From positions 1 to 36,955 of IMG/VR virus record IMGVR_UViG_2681813166_000002: DNA of 36,955 nucleotides. The stretch is one strand, 5' to 3'. This document shows positions 6,997 through 36,955 of this stretch, piece after piece. The stretch's first letter is position 1; every line of letters begins with the position of its first letter. Both the position numbers and the translations under genes were made by a program. This DNA is from a virus (taxonomy: Duplodnaviria > Heunggongvirae > Uroviricota > Caudoviricetes). The notes under the pieces are model-generated. The model ran no database searches. It was not told where the DNA came from and worked only from the letters and a program-made list of their open reading frames with translations.

Positions 6997-7028
6997 GGCA
7001 ACAATAGCACTCATTTGTGAGTGCTGTT
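6997..7028. terminator. Hairpin between convergent genes; possible bidirectional terminator
   Basis: AGCACTCA-tttg-TGAGTGCT perfect 8-bp stem with flanking extension; no clear U-tract on either strand. Confidence 0.35.
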
Positions 7029-7036
7029 GAAATTTA

Positions 7037-8455
7037 TTAGAAAATAATGTTTGCTATATCCGAGATAGCATTTAAAGAACCTCTGTGGTCACTTCCTGTT
7101 TTAGGTAAAATATAGGAATATCGAGGGTCTTCATTATATGTTAACTTCCAGTGTTTTCCATCGCTTGACGCACTGAAACCTAAGTCCTTTAAATTTCTTT
7201 GTGTTGCGCTATCCATGCTTCTGTAACCTGTTAAAGTCCTTTTAAGTAATTGGCGGCGACTCTCGGTTTCTTTATTGTATTCATTATTGGCAATTAGGGA
7301 TGATAAGATATGGTAGCTTCTACCAAATTCATTTTTATTTTTTATGGCAGTTTTTAGTGCGTCAATAATTATATTTTTGATTTCTCCATCAAAAAAGTCA
7401 GTCTCTTCACCAGCATTAAGCACAATGCTTCCTTGGGCTGAAGCTTGTGATTGAAGAGTGCGTACTCTGTGCTCTAAAGAGGAGATCTTATGCTTAAGAT
7501 CTTCTATTTGGTCATCTTTCGCAACATTATCGGCTTCGTAAAGCGCCATCAGTTCGCGTGTGTATTCTCCTCTTTCTTTGAGTGAGTTAATAGAGTCTTT
7601 CGTTTTTCTGGTTTGTATCTCACTCCATCCACTATCTGAGACAGGAGCCATTGTAGTCGTAGCTCTTACAACATCATCAAATAACTCATCTTCAAATTCT
7701 TTTGCGGTTTTCTCACCACGGCGATAAAAACTGATATTTTGACCCCGTGGCCAATAGATACCAACAGCACCAGCATAGGCATTTTTAGCATTTGTCTCAT
7801 TTTTTAGCTTAATAGAAAATAGTCTATTGCTAGGCTCAATTAATACATGTGCTAATCCGCATACCTTTCTTGCAAGGCGTTCTGGGATGATATTGTGAGC
7901 ATGTTCATTAAAAAAATACTTGGAGCTAACGTATATTATTGGTAGTCTGTTGTCAGTTTCACCATTTATAACTTTAGCTGCTATATTTAAATGTTCATCA
8001 GTATCATCTAAGGAATGAGGTTCGACTGACACCTTGAAAATATCATCAAGACCACCAGAAAATTTATCAATCAATCTCATAACAACTAATGGTTTCTTAG
8101 GTTGCGGGGCTAGATAAGCTGCATCTTGGCTTACAACGCTAGATTCCACCTGAATCCACATGGTATCAGTTTTGAGATTTTTATTAATTGAAATATCTGT
8201 TACCCATTTGTGTGGCTCAGATATTTTCGAATACCTAAAACAGCCTAAACTAGTATCTTTGTTTTTATAAGTTATTATATCAATTCTTTCATTTTTAGAC
8301 TCTATGAAGTACTCCTCGCTTTTATAATCACATACTAATTGTGCTGGAATAAAAGTTGTATGTGGTGAGTCGTTTACCCAAGAAAAACATTCATTAAAGA
8401 TCTCAGCTAGAGATGTGGAGTTTGAAACATAAAAACCAGTTGAGAAATATTTCAT
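7037..8455 (-). CDS. Hypothetical 472-aa orphan protein, candidate accessory or defence gene
   Basis: Long intact ORF in markedly AT-rich DNA, opposite strand to flanking phage genes; AAGGAAA RBS 7 nt upstream of ATG; no motif I recognise. Confidence 0.75.
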   Translation of the reverse strand: MKYFSTGFYVSNSTSLAEIFNECFSWVNDSPHTTFIPAQLVCDYKSEEYFIESKNERIDIITYKNKDTSLGCFRYSKISEPHKWVTDISINKNLKTDTMWIQVESSVVSQDAAYLAPQPKKPLVVMRLIDKFSGGLDDIFKVSVEPHSLDDTDEHLNIAAKVINGETDNRLPIIYVSSKYFFNEHAHNIIPERLARKVCGLAHVLIEPSNRLFSIKLKNETNAKNAYAGAVGIYWPRGQNISFYRRGEKTAKEFEDELFDDVVRATTTMAPVSDSGWSEIQTRKTKDSINSLKERGEYTRELMALYEADNVAKDDQIEDLKHKISSLEHRVRTLQSQASAQGSIVLNAGEETDFFDGEIKNIIIDALKTAIKNKNEFGRSYHILSSLIANNEYNKETESRRQLLKRTLTGYRSMDSATQRNLKDLGFSASSDGKHWKLTYNEDPRYSYILPKTGSDHRGSLNAISDIANIIF

Positions 8456-8472
8456 GAAATTTCCTTATTAAA

Positions 8473-8490
8473 AATGAGATTAATCTCATT
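8473..8490. promoter_or_regulatory. Perfect 18-bp palindrome in the 5' region of the 472-aa gene; candidate operator
   Basis: AATGAGATTAATCTCATT is its own reverse complement and lies between a promoter-like region and the RBS. Confidence 0.3.
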
Positions 8491-8729
8491 GGCTATGATA
8501 ATTGTTACCCTCCTTTGGATCTAGTGTTCATTTGACATAAGAACCTATTGATTCATCATAATCAACTCGCCATAATCATGTCATCGGAGCCTGAACAACT
8601 CCGGTGACTTCTGCGCTAAACGGGGACGTTTATGCGCACATACAATCCAAACTCTCTTCTCCCTTCACAGATGCAGAGATGCACCTGCGATTTTTTGCAT
8701 CCAGCGTTTGACCTCTGCGGAGGTGAAGC

Positions 8730-9185
8730 GTGAACCTCCCACAAGACGGCATCAAATTGCATCGTGGTAACTTCACTGCTATCGGTCAGCAGATCCAGCC
8801 TTATCTGGAGGACGGCAAATGCTTTCGCATGGTGCTTAAACCGTGGCGCGAAAGACGCAGTCTTTCCCAGAATGCACTCAGCCACATGTGGTACAGCGAA
8901 ATCAGTGAGTACCTCATCAGCAGGGGGAAATCGTTCGCTACTGCAGCATGGGTAAAAGATGCTCTCAAACACACATACCTCGGTTATGAAACCAAGGACC
9001 TGGTTGATGTCGTAACCGGCGAAATCACTACGATCCAGTCGTTACGCCATACCTCCGATCTTGATACCGGAGAGATGTATGTCTTCCTGTGTAAGGTTGA
9101 AGCCTGGGCGATGAATATTGGCTGCCACCTGACTATTCCGCAGAGCTGCGAGTTCCAGCTGCTGCGCGACAAGCAGGAGGCGTAA
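8730..9185 (+). CDS. ninB: NinB/Orf-family recombination protein
   Basis: 151-aa ORF with [21 protein letters not shown] resembling the NinB RSLDQN region; position after ren; GTG start with GGAGG RBS. Confidence 0.75.
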
Positions 9186-20705: not shown

Positions 20706-21262
20706 AACTGACGCCTGTTATTGCTGCGCTGCGTGCCCGCTGCCCGTATTTTGAAAACCGGGTGGCAGGCGCGGCACAGTTCAAAAATCTGCCGGAGGTC
20801 GGAAAGCTGAGACTCCCGGCGGCGTATGTGGTACCGGGTGATGACTCTCCGGGAGAAAACAAAAGCCAGACCGACTACTGGCAGGAGCTGAAAGAGGGCT
20901 TCTCCGTGGTTGTCATACTGAGTAACGGGCGTGATGAGCGCGGTCAGTTTGCTTCGTATGATGTGGTGGACGATGTCCGGCAGATGCTCTTTAAGGCTCT
21001 GCTGGGCTGGAACCCGGAGGCGTGCGGTAACCCGATTACCTATGACGGCGGCACGCTGCTGGATCTGAATCGTCATGAGCTGATTTATCAGTTCGATTTT
21101 TCGGTCATCAGCGAGCTGACTGAAGACGATACCCGCCAGCAGGATGATCTGAACAGTCTGGATGAACTGCAAACGCTGGCGATTGATGTTGATTATCTCG
21201 AGCCCGGTAACGGGCCTGACGGCGATATCGAACATCACACCGAAATAACCCTTCCTTCCTGA
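20702..21262 (+). CDS. Tail completion / neck protein (function inferred from position)
   Basis: 186-aa acidic ORF between neck genes and sheath. Confidence 0.5.
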   Translation: MKLTPVIAALRARCPYFENRVAGAAQFKNLPEVGKLRLPAAYVVPGDDSPGENKSQTDYWQELKEGFSVVVILSNGRDERGQFASYDVVDDVRQMLFKALLGWNPEACGNPITYDGGTLLDLNRHELIYQFDFSVISELTEDDTRQQDDLNSLDELQTLAIDVDYLEPGNGPDGDIEHHTEITLPS

Positions 21263-31204: not shown

Positions 31205-31996
31205 ATGCATCGTATAGACACGAAAACCGCGCAGAAGGATAAGTTCGGCGCGGGTAAAAACGGTTTTACCCGTGGTAACCCCCAGACCGGCACACCTGCC
31301 ACCGATCTTGATGATGACTACTTTGATATGTTGCAGGAAGAACTCTGCAGCGTGGTGGAGGCATCCGGTGCCAGCCTGGAGAAGGGGCGGCATGACCAGC
31401 TGCTTACCGCGCTTCGTGCGCTGCTGTTAAGCCGCAAGAATCCGTTTGGCGATATCAAATCGGATGGCACGGTGAAAACGGCTCTCGAAAACCTTGGTTT
31501 GGGAGAAGGCTCTGCATTACCTGTTGGTGTGCCTGTTCCATGGCCTTCAGCCACACCGCCAACAGGCTGGCTGAAATGCAACGGTGCAGCTTTTTCTGCT
31601 GAAGAATACCCGGAACTGGCAAAGGCTTACCCGACAAATAAATTGCCTGATTTACGCGGTGAATTTATTCGTGGCTGGGATGACGGGCGTGGTATTGATG
31701 CTGTACGTGCCTTGCTAAGTCTTCAGAATGGAGGAGTGGAATCACACACCCACCAAGGGCAGCTCTTCAGAGTTAGTGATTATCGTACAAAAGAAATACC
31801 AGCATCAGAAGTTATGGGAAGAGGATATATTGCAAGCCTGACGCCGGGTGCTGATAGCCCACTTGATTTTGATGATTATTCTGTATCTTCTAATCCAAAT
31901 GGATATTTTGTCGGGAATCAGAGAACAACAGCATATGGGATAAATGAAACCCGTCCACGGAATATTGCATTTAACTATATCGTGAGGGCTGCATAA
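31205..31996 (+). CDS. Tail fibre protein: constant N-terminal part fused to variable C-terminal part in its current orientation
   Basis: 263-aa ORF with a tail-collar-like segment ([22 protein letters not shown]); recombination site inside the gene at ~31482-31507. Confidence 0.8.
31482..31507. promoter_or_regulatory. Left crossover site of the invertible segment (gix/hix-like)
   Basis: CTCTCGAAAACC-TT-GGTTTGGGAGAA, a 26-bp imperfect palindrome resembling the hixL/gixL consensus as I recall it. Confidence 0.6.
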
Positions 31997-32598
31997 TGGA
32001 TAACGCTGTATTAAATAGCGAGTTTATTGCTACAAAGGCGGGGAATATTACCGTCTATAACTATGATGGCGAAACACGGGAATATATTTCCACATCAACT
32101 GAATATCTTGCCGTTGGTGTCGGTATCCCTGCATATTCCTGTTTAGATGCCCCTAGCATACATAAGGCGGGTTATGCTATCTGCCGTTCGATGGATTTAA
32201 ACTCATGGGAATATGTGCCAGACCATCGCAGTGAAATTGTCTATAGCACCGAAACGGGAGATACCAAAGAAATCACAGCTCCGGGTGATTACCCTGAAAA
32301 TACAACCACTATCGCACCGTTAACGCCATACGATAAATGGGATGGTGAGAAATGGGTGACAGATACTGAGGCACAACACGGTGCTGCAGTAGAAGTGGCA
32401 GAAGCACAACGCCAGTCACTGATTGATACAGCAATGGCTTCCATTAGTCTGATTCAGCTGAAATTACAGGCCGGACGGAAGTTGACGCAGGCAGAAACAA
32501 CCCGACTTAGCGCCGTGCTGGATTACATTGACGCGGTGGCGGCAACAGATACCAGCACCGCGCCGGATGTCATCTGGCCTGAACTGCCGGAGGTGTAG
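31996..32598 (+). CDS. Tail fibre assembly protein (U-like), expressed orientation
   Basis: 200-aa ORF directly after the fibre gene with ATG overlap. Confidence 0.75.
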   Translation: MDNAVLNSEFIATKAGNITVYNYDGETREYISTSTEYLAVGVGIPAYSCLDAPSIHKAGYAICRSMDLNSWEYVPDHRSEIVYSTETGDTKEITAPGDYPENTTTIAPLTPYDKWDGEKWVTDTEAQHGAAVEVAEAQRQSLIDTAMASISLIQLKLQAGRKLTQAETTRLSAVLDYIDAVAATDTSTAPDVIWPELPEV

Positions 32599-33007
32599 GC
32601 CATTCAATATCTGGCGCACCGGTAGTATCGACTAGCTCCAGTGCGTCCAGATAATCCAGCCACGAATTATATTGCGCCAGTTCCTCGCCTTTCAGACGAC
32701 CAATAGCGGCTTTACCGGGCCATTGTTTACTGTTCATGTATTCGTTGGCCTGATTAAGCAATAATTGCCTTTCTGATTCTGCCTGTTGAATAAGTTCTTC
32801 ATGTGATGGTGGAGGTATTAGTGCCCATGTGGGTAATCCATTTTTTCCTGCAACACGAATTTTGTCATCTGGAGGCGTATTGATTGCAAATTCATTATAA
32901 ACATCATCACTGACAGCCAGAGCATCATCTGGCCATGAATTTGCATTAATGTAATCATCCTTAAGTGCAGGATTCACAAAAATGTTTAAAGATGGACTAT
33001 AAAACAT
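32570..33007 (-). CDS. Alternative tail fibre assembly protein (U'-like), opposite orientation
   Basis: 145-aa minus-strand ORF, convergent with U and sharing the C-terminal motif (APDIEWPTPP versus APDVIWPELP). Confidence 0.7.
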   Translation of the reverse strand: MFYSPSLNIFVNPALKDDYINANSWPDDALAVSDDVYNEFAINTPPDDKIRVAGKNGLPTWALIPPPSHEELIQQAESERQLLLNQANEYMNSKQWPGKAAIGRLKGEELAQYNSWLDYLDALELVDTTGAPDIEWPTPPAVQAR

Positions 33008-33008
33008 A

Positions 33009-33398
33009 TTACACCCCTATAGCGATATAACGACCTAATACAGCGTTTGCAGCAGTCGCTATGCTTGAAAAACCGCGGAACTGATTTGATGTAATTGCAG
33101 AAGCCGACAGGATTCCTGCGCCTGAAGGTGTATGCCCCACATGACTAACTATCATTCCATAACATGCTGACGGAAAGGCAAAAGGAAAATCGTTAAGATA
33201 TCCGGCATCTTCACCACCAGACCCACCAAATCTCGCCTGCCCCCACTGAATAATCAGTGTTCTCCGGGAACCTGAAATAATTAACGGGATCGTTACATAC
33301 CCATTCAGGCCAATGACACCCGATGCAGTGCCAGCCAGAGATAATTCTCCCAAACCAACGTTTATGAAAATGTAGAAATAACGAGCAAATGGCATCAT
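33009..33398 (-). CDS. Alternative tail-fibre C-terminal segment (Sv'-like); no promoter or start of its own in this orientation
   Basis: Minus-strand ORF contains the right crossover site in frame (…NVGLGELSLAG… versus …[11 protein letters not shown]… in the expressed fibre). Confidence 0.65.
   Translation of the reverse strand: MMPFARYFYIFINVGLGELSLAGTASGVIGLNGYVTIPLIISGSRRTLIIQWGQARFGGSGGEDAGYLNDFPFAFPSACYGMIVSHVGHTPSGAGILSASAITSNQFRGFSSIATAANAVLGRYIAIGV
33345..33370. promoter_or_regulatory. Right crossover site of the invertible segment, partly degenerate
   Basis: TTCTCCCAAACC-AA-CGTTTATGAAAA; its left arm is identical to the reverse complement of the left site's right arm; the outer arm is degenerate. 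Confidence 0.5.
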
Positions 33399-33699: not shown

Positions 33700-34584
33700 T
33701 TATCTTACAGCTGGTGTTTGAGGTGGCTTCGTTTTCGTTTTTTTCACGCCCTTGTTTTTTACTATTTCCAGTGCCCTTTTCTGAAGGTCTACTCCTGATG
33801 GATAGAGCACGTTGAGAATGTGCTCAGTCAGTCGGTACGCATCAAACAGATCACTTTGAGTTAAACCTGATGCTGCGTGACTCCCTTCATTACCTAACCA
33901 CTTAACAGCAAATAAAAGTCCATCTAACTTTCCAAATGTTTTTTTTCTATGTGCAGCTATGGTAATTCGTTCATGAAGAGACATGAGGCACCGCTCGCGC
34001 TTGGACTTACCCTTCCGCTTAATTAATTTGTATTTTGGTATATTGTATTCAGATAAAAGATTCTCTATTGCCATTCTAACCTTGTTTGCTGCTGAGCTTG
34101 GCGAAAGTAGTGTCAGTGAAAATGCTTCTTGCAAATTCTCATATACTTCAGATGGACATGTTGTGGGGATATCTATGTACTGTAGCGGAGGGATAAATAC
34201 TTTGGGGATGTAATAGCTAAAGTACTCCTGTATCTGTTCATCTCGATCATTTACAGTAATATCCATCTCAACATAACCAGTGCCTGAGCAGACGACAACT
34301 TCCTCGCATTCATGATTTTCGCATACCAGAACCGCAGTAAAAACCTCTTTAATCAGTTCTGTATCGGAGCCGAGAATCTCAATAAGATTATGTGATTCAC
34401 TAGTTACCTTTGCATAAAATTTTTCTTTATTTAATTTCAAACTGCTTCTTCCGCAACTTGGGCACGGGTATGTCACGTAGTCATTTACTTTGAAAGGTTT
34501 ACCAATTGAAAACTTATCCATTTTTCTCTCGTTAATTTCTCTATGAATGGTTGCTACTGAGTTTACCAACACTGTGTTTTGCAT
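33700..34584 (-). CDS. Hypothetical 294-aa protein: N-terminal zinc ribbon plus C-terminal helical domain with an R-x5-H motif
   Basis: AT-rich ORF; CPSCGR...CENHECEE cysteine cluster; C-terminal ERITIAAHRKK and KWLGNEGSHAAS. Confidence 0.7.
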   Translation of the reverse strand: MQNTVLVNSVATIHREINERKMDKFSIGKPFKVNDYVTYPCPSCGRSSLKLNKEKFYAKVTSESHNLIEILGSDTELIKEVFTAVLVCENHECEEVVVCSGTGYVEMDITVNDRDEQIQEYFSYYIPKVFIPPLQYIDIPTTCPSEVYENLQEAFSLTLLSPSSAANKVRMAIENLLSEYNIPKYKLIKRKGKSKRERCLMSLHERITIAAHRKKTFGKLDGLLFAVKWLGNEGSHAASGLTQSDLFDAYRLTEHILNVLYPSGVDLQKRALEIVKNKGVKKTKTKPPQTPAVR

Positions 34585-34807
34585 GCAATTTGCATGGAGT
34601 AGAATAAAAAAATCGGAAGTTGTCCGCTATCTCACAAATTTCCGCAAGCAATAACATCGCTAGCTTTAATACTTTAGCTCTCTCGATTTCTTGTTAATAG
34701 GAGTATGGGATTAATAATCCATACTCCTCGTTTTAAGGCAGCTAATAGACGCCTTTTGATGGGGTTAATAATATCATAAAAGAATTTAAAAATAACTTCA
34801 TTGTCTA

Positions 34808-35248
34808 TTAGTAACTAATGGTTATCGTAAACATAAATGTAGTTAGTTGACAAAAACCTACGACTGATAACATTATTTTTATCCAGAAAAAAAATAAGGC
34901 GGGGTAATTTATACAATTTGGTGGTTCTTTTAAATTATGTGTTTTTTTATCAAGTCCATTTTCCTCAAGATATTTTTCTCTTCTACGACCAAGCATTCCC
35001 CAAATAATAGTGGTTGCAGCATATTGCAGAAAATCCATTATTAAAGACATAACCAAGAACACTAATGACCAATATAGTGTATTGGGAAATAATAGAATTG
35101 TCTCAGACGAAGATCCTACTGAACTATTACTTATACTTCCCTTGAATAACCATATCAATGCAATCCCACCTAGACATGATTGCCTGTTAATATTTGATAG
35201 TGAACCGCTCGCATCATAGTATGCTTGCTGTATTTTATCTAAAAGCAT
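34808..35248 (-). CDS. Hypothetical integral membrane protein (146 aa)
   Basis: Several hydrophobic helices; start overlaps the stop of the upstream small gene. Confidence 0.6.
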   Translation of the reverse strand: MLLDKIQQAYYDASGSLSNINRQSCLGGIALIWLFKGSISNSSVGSSSETILLFPNTLYWSLVFLVMSLIMDFLQYAATTIIWGMLGRRREKYLEENGLDKKTHNLKEPPNCINYPALFFFWIKIMLSVVGFCQLTTFMFTITISY

Positions 35249-35535
35249 TACAGTACCTTCTTAATATTTGCACGTTTAGGCCCTGTACTGGTAGTCATTT
35301 TAGGCACATTTTCGGGGATGAGAATATTTTCGCTTGAAATTATTGCCCAGTTGCCTTTTTTTATTTGTCTGGTATTTAAATATGCTCGCCCATTTTTTAT
35401 AGTAATAAACCTTGAGTTTATAGAAACTCTTCTCGTCCTGTCAGGATTATCTTTTTTGGCTAATGTAATGCTGACTCTGGTAATCTTTGGATTTGATATA
35501 TGCATATGTACACGTAAGCCACGACTTTTTTTCAT
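35248..35535 (-). CDS. Hypothetical small basic protein (95 aa), first gene of a two-gene operon
   Basis: GAGGGG RBS 6 nt upstream of ATG (MKKSRGLRVHMHISNPK...); the track ORF extends further upstream without an RBS. Confidence 0.5.
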   Translation of the reverse strand: MKKSRGLRVHMHISNPKITRVSITLAKKDNPDRTRRVSINSRFITIKNGRAYLNTRQIKKGNWAIISSENILIPENVPKMTTSTGPKRANIKKVL

Positions 35536-36208
35536 TATCCCCTCACTGATACTAGCTTTAACACTGTGATACAATAACTTATATTTATGAATAAAATCAA
35601 TTGATAAATTGTAGCATTTCGGTGGCATGGAAGTTACTGTCACTACAAGCAGGTAACAACACACTCTCCTTGTTTATAACAGTAACGCACTTCAATCATG
35701 TCAAATATATGGCGGTCGAGAAATAAAGTGGCCTATAGCTATTCACTCGGGAACTGCGGCTCCTTTGCGTATCCTTTTTTGTCTCTTCACCTTCTGGTCG
35801 GTGTCTTGCTGAGATTTATAACTTCCTGTTTTTGTTGGTGTTGTCCTTACACCCTCCAATCATGATTGGCTGGCGGTAGTTGAACCCGCAGACACGTCGT
35901 ATGCAAGGACTTGCTGCGGCTGGATGGTGGACTTTCGATAGTGCGAGTATTGAATGATTTCCATCTATTATAGATTTTACCGTATTTCGGCATGAATGAA
36001 ATTGAATATCCTCCCACCGACCCTCCATGACTTTACACCACTGTCTCTGGGGCTGCTATGTGCCAAAAGCTGACATCTTCATTTTCGATGAATTTGTCAG
36101 CTACATATTATGACGCTTTCATATTTTGATGCTTTTCCCTAAATAATACTAACCCAATTCTCATCTATTTCGCTATCAATCTTAATCGTATTTAATAACT
36201 TGCAGTCA

Positions 36209-36955
36209 CTATCTATATAGCCTTTTTGCTAATGGTTCTATGGATGATGAATAGCAAAACTCTCTATTCATATTGTCTATCAATTCAAAAACTTGATCTT
36301 CAACCTCATAGTAATCATTTCTAGGCAATCGAGGATGGATTATTCCAAAATTTCGAAGCAAATTTGTGATGTTATTTTGATGTCTTACGTAAGAGAAAGA
36401 ACCTGATTTGGCTAGTGAACATGCAGTATTTGAGTCACTTATAGCACTGTTTAATTTTACAATCAGATTGCAGTAGTCTTGAGATATGGATGTAGAGCCA
36501 GAACGAGACTTATTAAAAATGATGTTATACCATTTGAATATATCAAATGAAGATGCGGATAGACGATCTCTTTTATTTATTTCGTATGATAAGTACTCTT
36601 GAAATATCTTAAAGTGTGATATATGGTTGCCAAGAGCTGACACGCTGACACTATTAGTATACCCAAGCAACGCAACAACTATTCCACCTATGCTAGCGAC
36701 TAACCCCAACAATATGAAAGTTGCTTGCAATATTAATATTGATTGTGAGTAACCTTTAGTAAAATTTGAAATGCAGGTATTATTGAAACAAAAACTCCGA
36801 TTAAAAAAACCTTCTTGCATTCCAGTTAAAATAAATGAAGTTACAAAAAGCATTATGCCTAGTGTAACAATAGTAATCAAACATAGAAGCAAGATTCTAA
36901 GAGAGTGTGAGTCTATTTTTTTTAGAAGGATATAACTTTTAAAAAAGTTTTTCAT
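36209..36955 (-). CDS. Hypothetical protein with two N-terminal TM helices and a soluble C-terminal domain (248 aa; start at window edge)
   Basis: AT-rich ORF; hydrophobic segments ILLLCLITIVTLGIMLFVTSFIL and ILILQATFILLGLVASIGGIVVALLGY; the ATG is the last three bases of the window, so the true start could lie beyond. Confidence 0.55.
   Translation of the reverse strand: MKNFFKSYILLKKIDSHSLRILLLCLITIVTLGIMLFVTSFILTGMQEGFFNRSFCFNNTCISNFTKGYSQSILILQATFILLGLVASIGGIVVALLGYTNSVSVSALGNHISHFKIFQEYLSYEINKRDRLSASSFDIFKWYNIIFNKSRSGSTSISQDYCNLIVKLNSAISDSNTACSLAKSGSFSYVRHQNNITNLLRNFGIIHPRLPRNDYYEVEDQVFELIDNMNREFCYSSSIEPLAKRLYR

Follow-up and report, generated by a model that had tools for sequence, protein, structure and literature searches.

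The open reading frame (ORF) that closes the analysed stretch of DNA (hereafter the window, 36,955 nucleotides of the caudoviricete record IMGVR_UViG_2681813166_000002) very probably encodes the effector of a type IV (Ec48-family) retron, an anti-phage system that has three parts. Type IV retrons were defined by a clade-3 reverse transcriptase (RT) and a protein with two transmembrane (TM) segments, encoded just downstream of the RT gene or overlapping it (PMC7736814). The effector family is already named and annotated in RefSeq, and earlier work has described and classified this type of system and has tested a relative. A preliminary description of this DNA, made from the letters alone, had proposed a membrane-tethered defence effector, and that reading is borne out by full-length matches to the retron Ec48-family models NF038235 and 2TM_IV; what it had not recognised is that the family already existed under a name and an annotation.

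The family assignment is based on several profile collections. The NCBIfam equivalog model NF038235 (retron_Ec48_2TM) scored the protein at 228.5 bits, against a cutoff of 65, and covered 217 of 219 profile positions; the PADLOC model 2TM_IV matched with an E-value of 1.9e-82 over 233 of 235 profile positions; and PHROG 10895, a family with no assigned function, matched at 7e-86. The protein is 100% identical to RefSeq WP_129467586.1, and its exact sequence is recorded on 266 contigs. A search of a large protein collection returned 21 clusters of homologues, all 21 of which carry PF28197 (Retron_Ec48_antiviral) as a precomputed annotation, and every named cluster among them is called 'retron Ec48 family effector membrane protein'. 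Homologues at 40-90% identity span several genera, and these, together with three independent profiles (E 1e-68 to 1e-86), indicate that the ORF is not a chance reading frame. Zero matches were obtained from the copy of Pfam-A that was searched directly, because the PF28197 model is newer than that copy. A PADLOC match to DpdF (E 0.0023) was weak and was dismissed as noise.

The ORF encodes 248 amino acids on the minus strand and ends with a TAG stop (36209-36211), while its start codon appears as CAT in the final three plus-strand bases of the window. As had been described before, it lies in AT-rich DNA, with a GC content of 31.6% versus 49.4% for the whole window. The features of the ORF and of its downstream flank are the following.

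36209..36955, minus strand: complete coding sequence of the probable effector, an Ec48-family (type IV) retron membrane protein (ORF and family profiles)
36896..36955, minus strand: N-terminal tail, residues 1-20, with 5 K/R and 1 D/E (charge count)
36821..36895, minus strand: TM helix 1, residues ~21-45 (hydropathy; AlphaFold helix 17-48)
36743..36820, minus strand: inter-TM loop, residues 46-71 (26 residues), with C56 and C61 (alignment)
36662..36742, minus strand: TM helix 2, residues ~72-98 (hydropathy; AlphaFold helix 70-127)
36212..36661, minus strand: C-terminal all-helical domain, residues 99-248 (conservation; pLDDT mostly 75-96)
36102..36208, minus strand: 3' untranslated flank of the effector gene, part of the retron module (four-locus alignment)
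36065..36101, minus strand: terminator-like hairpin (36069-36101) followed by UUUU, ~108 nt 3' of the effector stop (RNA fold)

Kyte-Doolittle hydropathy (19-residue windows above 1.6) peaked at residues 14-47 and 69-103 only. The AlphaFold2 model, for which the input alignment comprised 19 family sequences, is all-helical (mean pLDDT 85.5, pTM 0.58), with helices at residues 17-48, 59-68, 70-127, 139-146, 159-181, 189-203 and 212-233. Hydropathy and model agree on the architecture read earlier from the translation, that is, two N-terminal TM helices and a C-terminal domain of ~150 residues. By the positive-inside rule, both termini would be cytoplasmic and the loop that carries C56 and C61 would be periplasmic, and the helix of TM2 (70-127) is predicted to run on into the cytoplasm. 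The two loop cysteines are invariant in the 19-sequence alignment and may form a disulfide. A juxtamembrane block at residues ~99-161, including N110-H111-x-x-H114, is near-invariant across homologues of 40-90% identity. Searches of PDB and BFVD returned no informative sequence or structure relative of the C-terminal domain and no recognisable pore-forming or enzymatic fold in the effector; none of the solved structures matches it, and no structural study of Eco6 was present in the literature searched. The juxtamembrane block, the invariant cysteine pair and the relative-less fold could together point to a gating mechanism undescribed for retron effectors.

As the start codon coincides with the edge of the window, it had been held that neither the N-terminus nor the promoter could be assessed. 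In the loci of relatives, the reading frame is closed by a stop 13 codons before the effector ATG, with no other start between the two, and the annotated effector start is the same ATG as in the window. Because this stop leaves no alternative start in loci whose last 3.6 kb match the window at 99.6% or more, the N-terminus is judged complete; on the sequence of these relatives, the effector protein lies entirely within the window and it is the promoter and the partner genes that are cut off. The part of the earlier view that concerned the promoter therefore stands, and the part that concerned the N-terminus does not.

The partner gene that was expected beyond the edge, with a reverse transcriptase among the neighbours suggested for inspection, is present in the relatives. 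EC6563 and NS-NP030 both encode, on the same strand, a 407-aa RT (WP_052979504.1, annotated 'reverse transcriptase family protein') that ends 16 nt before the effector ATG. PADLOC assigned this RT to RT_IV at 2.4e-163, far ahead of RT_V (3e-68) and RT_VI (4e-54), and its YxDD motif reads YTRLVDD, with the aspartates at positions 214/215. An RVT_1 gene lies upstream of the exact effector sequence in all eight public contexts that were read, and the gap is 16 nt in seven of them. Ten distant loci were collected by way of the family alignment (Proteus, seven Pseudomonas, Paraburkholderia and Psychromonas; effector identity 35-85%), and in 10/10 the RT, at 46-93% identity, is directly upstream of the effector. 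In seven of the eight loci with the identical protein, the effector sits directly downstream of a type IV (clade-3) RT, and the neighbour is a retron RT rather than a gene of a known housekeeping operon. The effector gene was found in 5 of 5426 complete E. coli genomes, at 99.7-99.9% DNA identity.

Among public records, the closest match to the window end is 99.72% identical over 3.6 kb, short of full identity, and the window stops at the effector ATG, which keeps the upstream side out of view. The gene might in principle be an orphaned or decayed effector, a non-functional remnant, if the genome from which the window comes lacks the RT or the non-coding RNA (ncRNA), or has it in truncated form or set apart by an insertion; such a state is approached in one of the eight contexts (L024), where an IS1 separates a shortened 388-aa RT from the identical effector. 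The other seven contexts and all ten distant loci have an intact RT, however, three genomes with 99.6-99.7% identity to the window over its final 3.6 kb all carry it, and the effector ORF of the window is intact and identical to the common allele, which makes a remnant distinctly improbable. Judged from the near-identical genomes, the RT and the ncRNA would also be present in the genome of the window, and the type IV retron reading is retained below.

On the minus strand, the complete module would be arranged as a sigma-70-type promoter, an msr-msd ncRNA (~250 nt), the 407-aa RT, the 16-nt gap, the effector and a hairpin terminator, with the promoter, ncRNA and RT immediately to the right of the window and the terminator inside it. 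The ncRNA was analysed in the relatives. In every locus, ~300 nt upstream of the RT could be aligned across genera, from E. coli to Pseudomonas, and the E. coli ncRNA region (conserved ~250 nt) opens with a TTGACA-17 nt-TATATA promoter. RNAalifold on the ncRNA alignment gave 66 pairs, 29 of them with compensatory changes. A structure specified by us, composed of a small 5' hairpin, a long-range 5'/3' pairing (a1/a2-like) and a long 3' hairpin, was then scored: 96.7% of the cells pair, versus 27-43% with the 3' partners slid by 1-3 columns, 22 of 44 pairs are changed on both sides (compensatory), and the covariation score was matched by 0 of 500 shuffles. As this structure was partly derived from the tested sequences, the ncRNA of phage pro147 was used as a held-out check, and there all 11 pairs of the long-range helices and 12 of 13 pairs of the 13-bp stem were kept with different bases. 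The layout is unusual and appears pseudoknot-like: the second, strongly covarying hairpin contains the 3' long-range segment in its apical part. These patterns argue for a structured msr-msd-type ncRNA upstream of the RT, in which the branching G and the msd limits are not placed with confidence. Rfam returned zero retron RNA families for the upstream region of the relatives. An alternative a1/a2 pair (CTCTGC with GCAGAG around a GC-rich hairpin) fits E. coli but, by eye, is not conserved in Pseudomonas, and it was rejected.

The window represents most of a myovirus-type prophage with RecT, a CI-like repressor, terminase, sheath, tape measure and a Mu-like baseplate. At the left end in EC6563, a tRNA-Thr (PGAP annotation) beside proA adjoins the prophage integrase, and a 30-nt exact thrW 3' fragment occurs ~0.8 kb past the retron RT, followed by a LysR-family pseudogene and paoDCBA. 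The fragment was picked up by pattern search with a thrW sequence, and its identification is supported by the exact 30-nt match and by the annotated tRNA-Thr; between prophage and retron the search found no thrW fragment, which places the retron inside the att-bounded element, at its attR end. ARAGORN detected no tRNA in the window or in two of the retron-related loci (L001 and L002). No direct or inverted repeats flanking the retron module were found that would indicate a separate insertion. As part of a prophage integrated in thrW, the retron module forms an AT-rich cargo close to attR. In other strains, the same prophage occurs without the retron, the similarity stopping at ~36070 and being followed by a DMT transporter and an aminotransferase, and the same retron occurs beside a lambdoid prophage (L002), with common DNA from window position 35743 onward; the module is exchangeable between prophages. 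The flank 36102..36208 is common to retron loci beside a different prophage in the four-locus alignment. The hairpin at 36069-36101 (-17.5 kcal/mol, z = -4.64 versus shuffles) stands at the junction of retron-specific and prophage-type DNA and is plausibly the operon terminator. A promoter/terminator consensus scan of 35600-36955 gave no more sites than in shuffled sequence and did not call this hairpin.

A location at the end of a prophage, two TM helices as in many holins and exclusion proteins, and the lack of an assigned function for PHROG 10895 would also suit a prophage membrane protein without any retron role, one that acts in holin-like lysis or superinfection exclusion and is merely near an RT. 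This is very improbable in view of the strict linkage to type IV RTs in Enterobacterales, Pseudomonas, Paraburkholderia, Psychromonas and a P2-like phage, and of the independent occurrence of the two partners described above, the prophage without the effector gene and the gene with a different prophage. No endolysin or spanin is adjacent: the neighbours in the relatives are the RT on one side and accessory ORFs and a DUF4145 gene on the other. PHROG 10895 bears no lysis annotation, and the size of the protein (248 aa) and its 150-aa cytoplasmic domain set it apart from typical holins. Moreover, the tested family member needs its effector for retron defence (bioRxiv 10.1101/2020.06.21.156273).

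Several other regions of the window and of its relatives were also characterized. Just left of the retron module, ~334 nt of non-coding DNA (35743-36076) are found in 4246 of 5426 complete E. coli genomes, in up to 7 places per genome, and parts of it occur in lambdoid phages, for instance HK97 (20941-21040), and close to the right end in records of Stx phages. It includes a T-arm-like tRNA/tmRNA hairpin, and the sole Rfam match obtained in the relatives was a 17-nt T-arm-like tmRNA/tRNA fragment in this prophage-end DNA. Prophage-type DNA seems to have its right end at this segment, with retron-specific DNA beginning just after it. Between the tail-fibre genes and the retron, an AT-rich accessory block on the minus strand (33700-35664) encodes a 294-aa DUF4145 protein (Pfam 2.4e-10; PHROG 1305 'DNA binding protein') and two small proteins (146 and 138 aa) without family matches, and this block travels with the prophage, retron-less copies included. 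The region 31205-33398 contains oppositely oriented pairs of tail-fibre and fibre-assembly genes (Gp53-like_C, Caudo_TAP); it differs among otherwise near-identical prophages, as expected of an invertible host-range segment, and a recombinase pseudogene or a resolvase is annotated adjacent to it in relatives. A 472-aa ORF on the minus strand (7037-8455), in an AT-rich island within the prophage (GC ~0.37-0.40 at 7000-9000), had no Pfam match, a weak match to the PADLOC candidate-defence model HEC-07 (1e-09) and a short C-terminal PHROG match, and could represent a further gene for defence or accessory functions. At the left window edge, a RecT recombinase is encoded on the minus strand (330-1115; Pfam 2.7e-33).

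The thrW locus itself is a tandem integration hotspot in the relatives compared (L017-L024). Past the retron and the thrW fragment lies either the LysR-family pseudogene with paoDCBA or a further P4-type integrase, after which the cargo varies: a Gabija-like OLD-TOPRIM and UvrD pair (L023), two RT genes (L019), an SMC-like ATPase (L018), or a DNA methylase and HNH pair (L020). In L021, only the N-terminal remnant of an integrase is left, next to vat.

The tested member of the family, Ec48, was studied with mutants in which RT residues D216/D217 were changed or effector residues 3-85 were deleted, the latter removing both TM helices (bioRxiv 10.1101/2020.06.21.156273). A second E. coli lineage of the family (P0059, pro147-like), carried by P2-like prophages, was found in 57 of 5426 complete E. 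coli genomes. In its 408-aa form the RT has the YxDD aspartates exactly at 216/217, and its effector, of 235 aa, has hydrophobic segments at residues ~5-32 and ~58-86; this lineage fits canonical Ec48, an assignment that rests on residue numbering. Relative to it, the present retron shows 29% identity in the effector and 44% in the RT, and it is not near-identical to the tested allele either, with YxDD aspartates at 214/215 and TM helices at ~21-98. The retron census paper gives WP_097505494.1 as the Eco6 RT, and the neighbour RT here is WP_052979504.1. From these sequence comparisons, the present retron is distinct from Ec48 and best described as a divergent branch of its family. In pro147 and E. 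coli EC9 (L014/L015), a second, divergently oriented gene for an 'RNA-directed DNA polymerase' (514 aa) lies immediately upstream of the retron ncRNA, so that in this type of P2-like prophage two RT-based systems stand side by side in one phage hotspot.

The mechanism of Ec48 has been investigated experimentally. Its defence requires the RT catalytic residues and the effector TM helices, phages that escape it carry mutations in lambda gam or T7 5.9, expression of the RecBCD inhibitors Gam and gp5.9 leads to death of Ec48-carrying cells, and Ec48 cannot be established in a recB deletion strain (bioRxiv 10.1101/2020.06.21.156273). If the present retron works in the same manner, the RT would copy part of the ncRNA into multicopy single-stranded DNA (msDNA), and the RT-msDNA complex would monitor the cell, either for the integrity of RecB/RecBCD, as in Ec48, or for a related cue. 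Once RecBCD is disabled by a phage inhibitor (lambda Gam, T7 gp5.9), a signal would pass to the conserved cytoplasmic domain of the effector, and the two-helix membrane anchor would bring about loss of viability (abortive infection) before the phage cycle is completed. Because of the divergence of the present allele, we infer this mechanism, RecBCD guarding with abortive infection, by analogy with Ec48, and the trigger and the killing mode may differ.

That the gene encodes a type IV effector whose branch senses a cue other than RecBCD, or kills otherwise than by membrane permeabilisation, is possible, if on balance unlikely. The low identity to the lineage that fits Ec48 (29% and 44%, as above) would allow for it, as would the unrecognisable fold of the effector. 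Retrons of the same clade vary in their trigger, type VI Vpa2 responding to Beta plus Exo rather than Gam (bioRxiv 10.1101/2025.10.22.683967), and expression of the Eco6 accessory protein by itself had no toxic effect (PMC8989520), which means that the simple picture of a toxin held in check is not established for the family. On the other hand, type V Sen1 and type IV Eco6 are triggered equally by Gam (bioRxiv 10.1101/2025.10.22.683967), and since the effectors of these two systems are unrelated, the trigger is suggested to be a property of the clade-3 RT and msDNA. The two type IV branches also have a conserved ncRNA architecture and the motifs of the cytoplasmic domain in common. That the thrW-prophage branch responds to a different phage cue or kills differently is considered rather improbable, and the Ec48-like mechanism is the one carried forward here.

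For discovery, the locus offers little, as RefSeq already lists the effector with the correct family name. Its value for annotation is modest: the prophage of the window carries a retron defence module at its attR end, and the module is located within the thrW integration hotspot, a site at which other defence cargo is found in relatives. Mildly new are three points: how far the allele has diverged from the tested one, how rare it is in E. coli, and the position of the cargo at the attR end in thrW prophages. Comparison with this rare, divergent type IV branch could help to work out how a membrane effector is activated by an RT-msDNA sensor. It may also be speculated that, if the recombination module with RecT at the left end also has a RecBCD inhibitor beyond the window start, induction of the prophage could trigger a RecBCD-guarding retron at the other end.

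Among known systems, type V (Retron-Sen1/Se72) and type VI (Retron-Vpa2) retrons likewise have RTs of clade 3, but their accessories are small cold-shock-like or HTH DNA-binding proteins, or a toxin encoded by a hybrid RNA, whereas the accessory here is a two-TM membrane protein. The two-TM effectors of CBASS and other abortive-infection systems likewise combine an N-terminal TM pair with a cytoplasmic receiver domain, and the authors of the Ec48 study likened membrane-mediated killing of the infected cell to such effectors (bioRxiv 10.1101/2020.06.21.156273). This is a functional analogy only, as the CBASS effectors have no detectable sequence or fold relation to the present one, and activation would differ as well, the RT-msDNA complex acting here in place of the cyclic-nucleotide signal of CBASS. 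The closest system is Ec48/Retron-Eco6 itself. Compared with the Ec48 lineage, the present effector has an N-terminus that is ~13 residues longer and a TM2 that ends at ~98 rather than ~86, the carrier is the attR end of thrW-integrated prophages instead of a P2-like phage, and the allele is rarer (5/5426 versus 57/5426 genomes). Both, however, are recognised by the effector models NF038235, 2TM_IV and PF28197 and the RT model RT_IV; both have the order ncRNA, RT and effector, with the effector abutting the RT; and both are borne by prophages, with a homologous ncRNA that has the same helices and with cytoplasmic-domain motifs and two loop cysteines in common.
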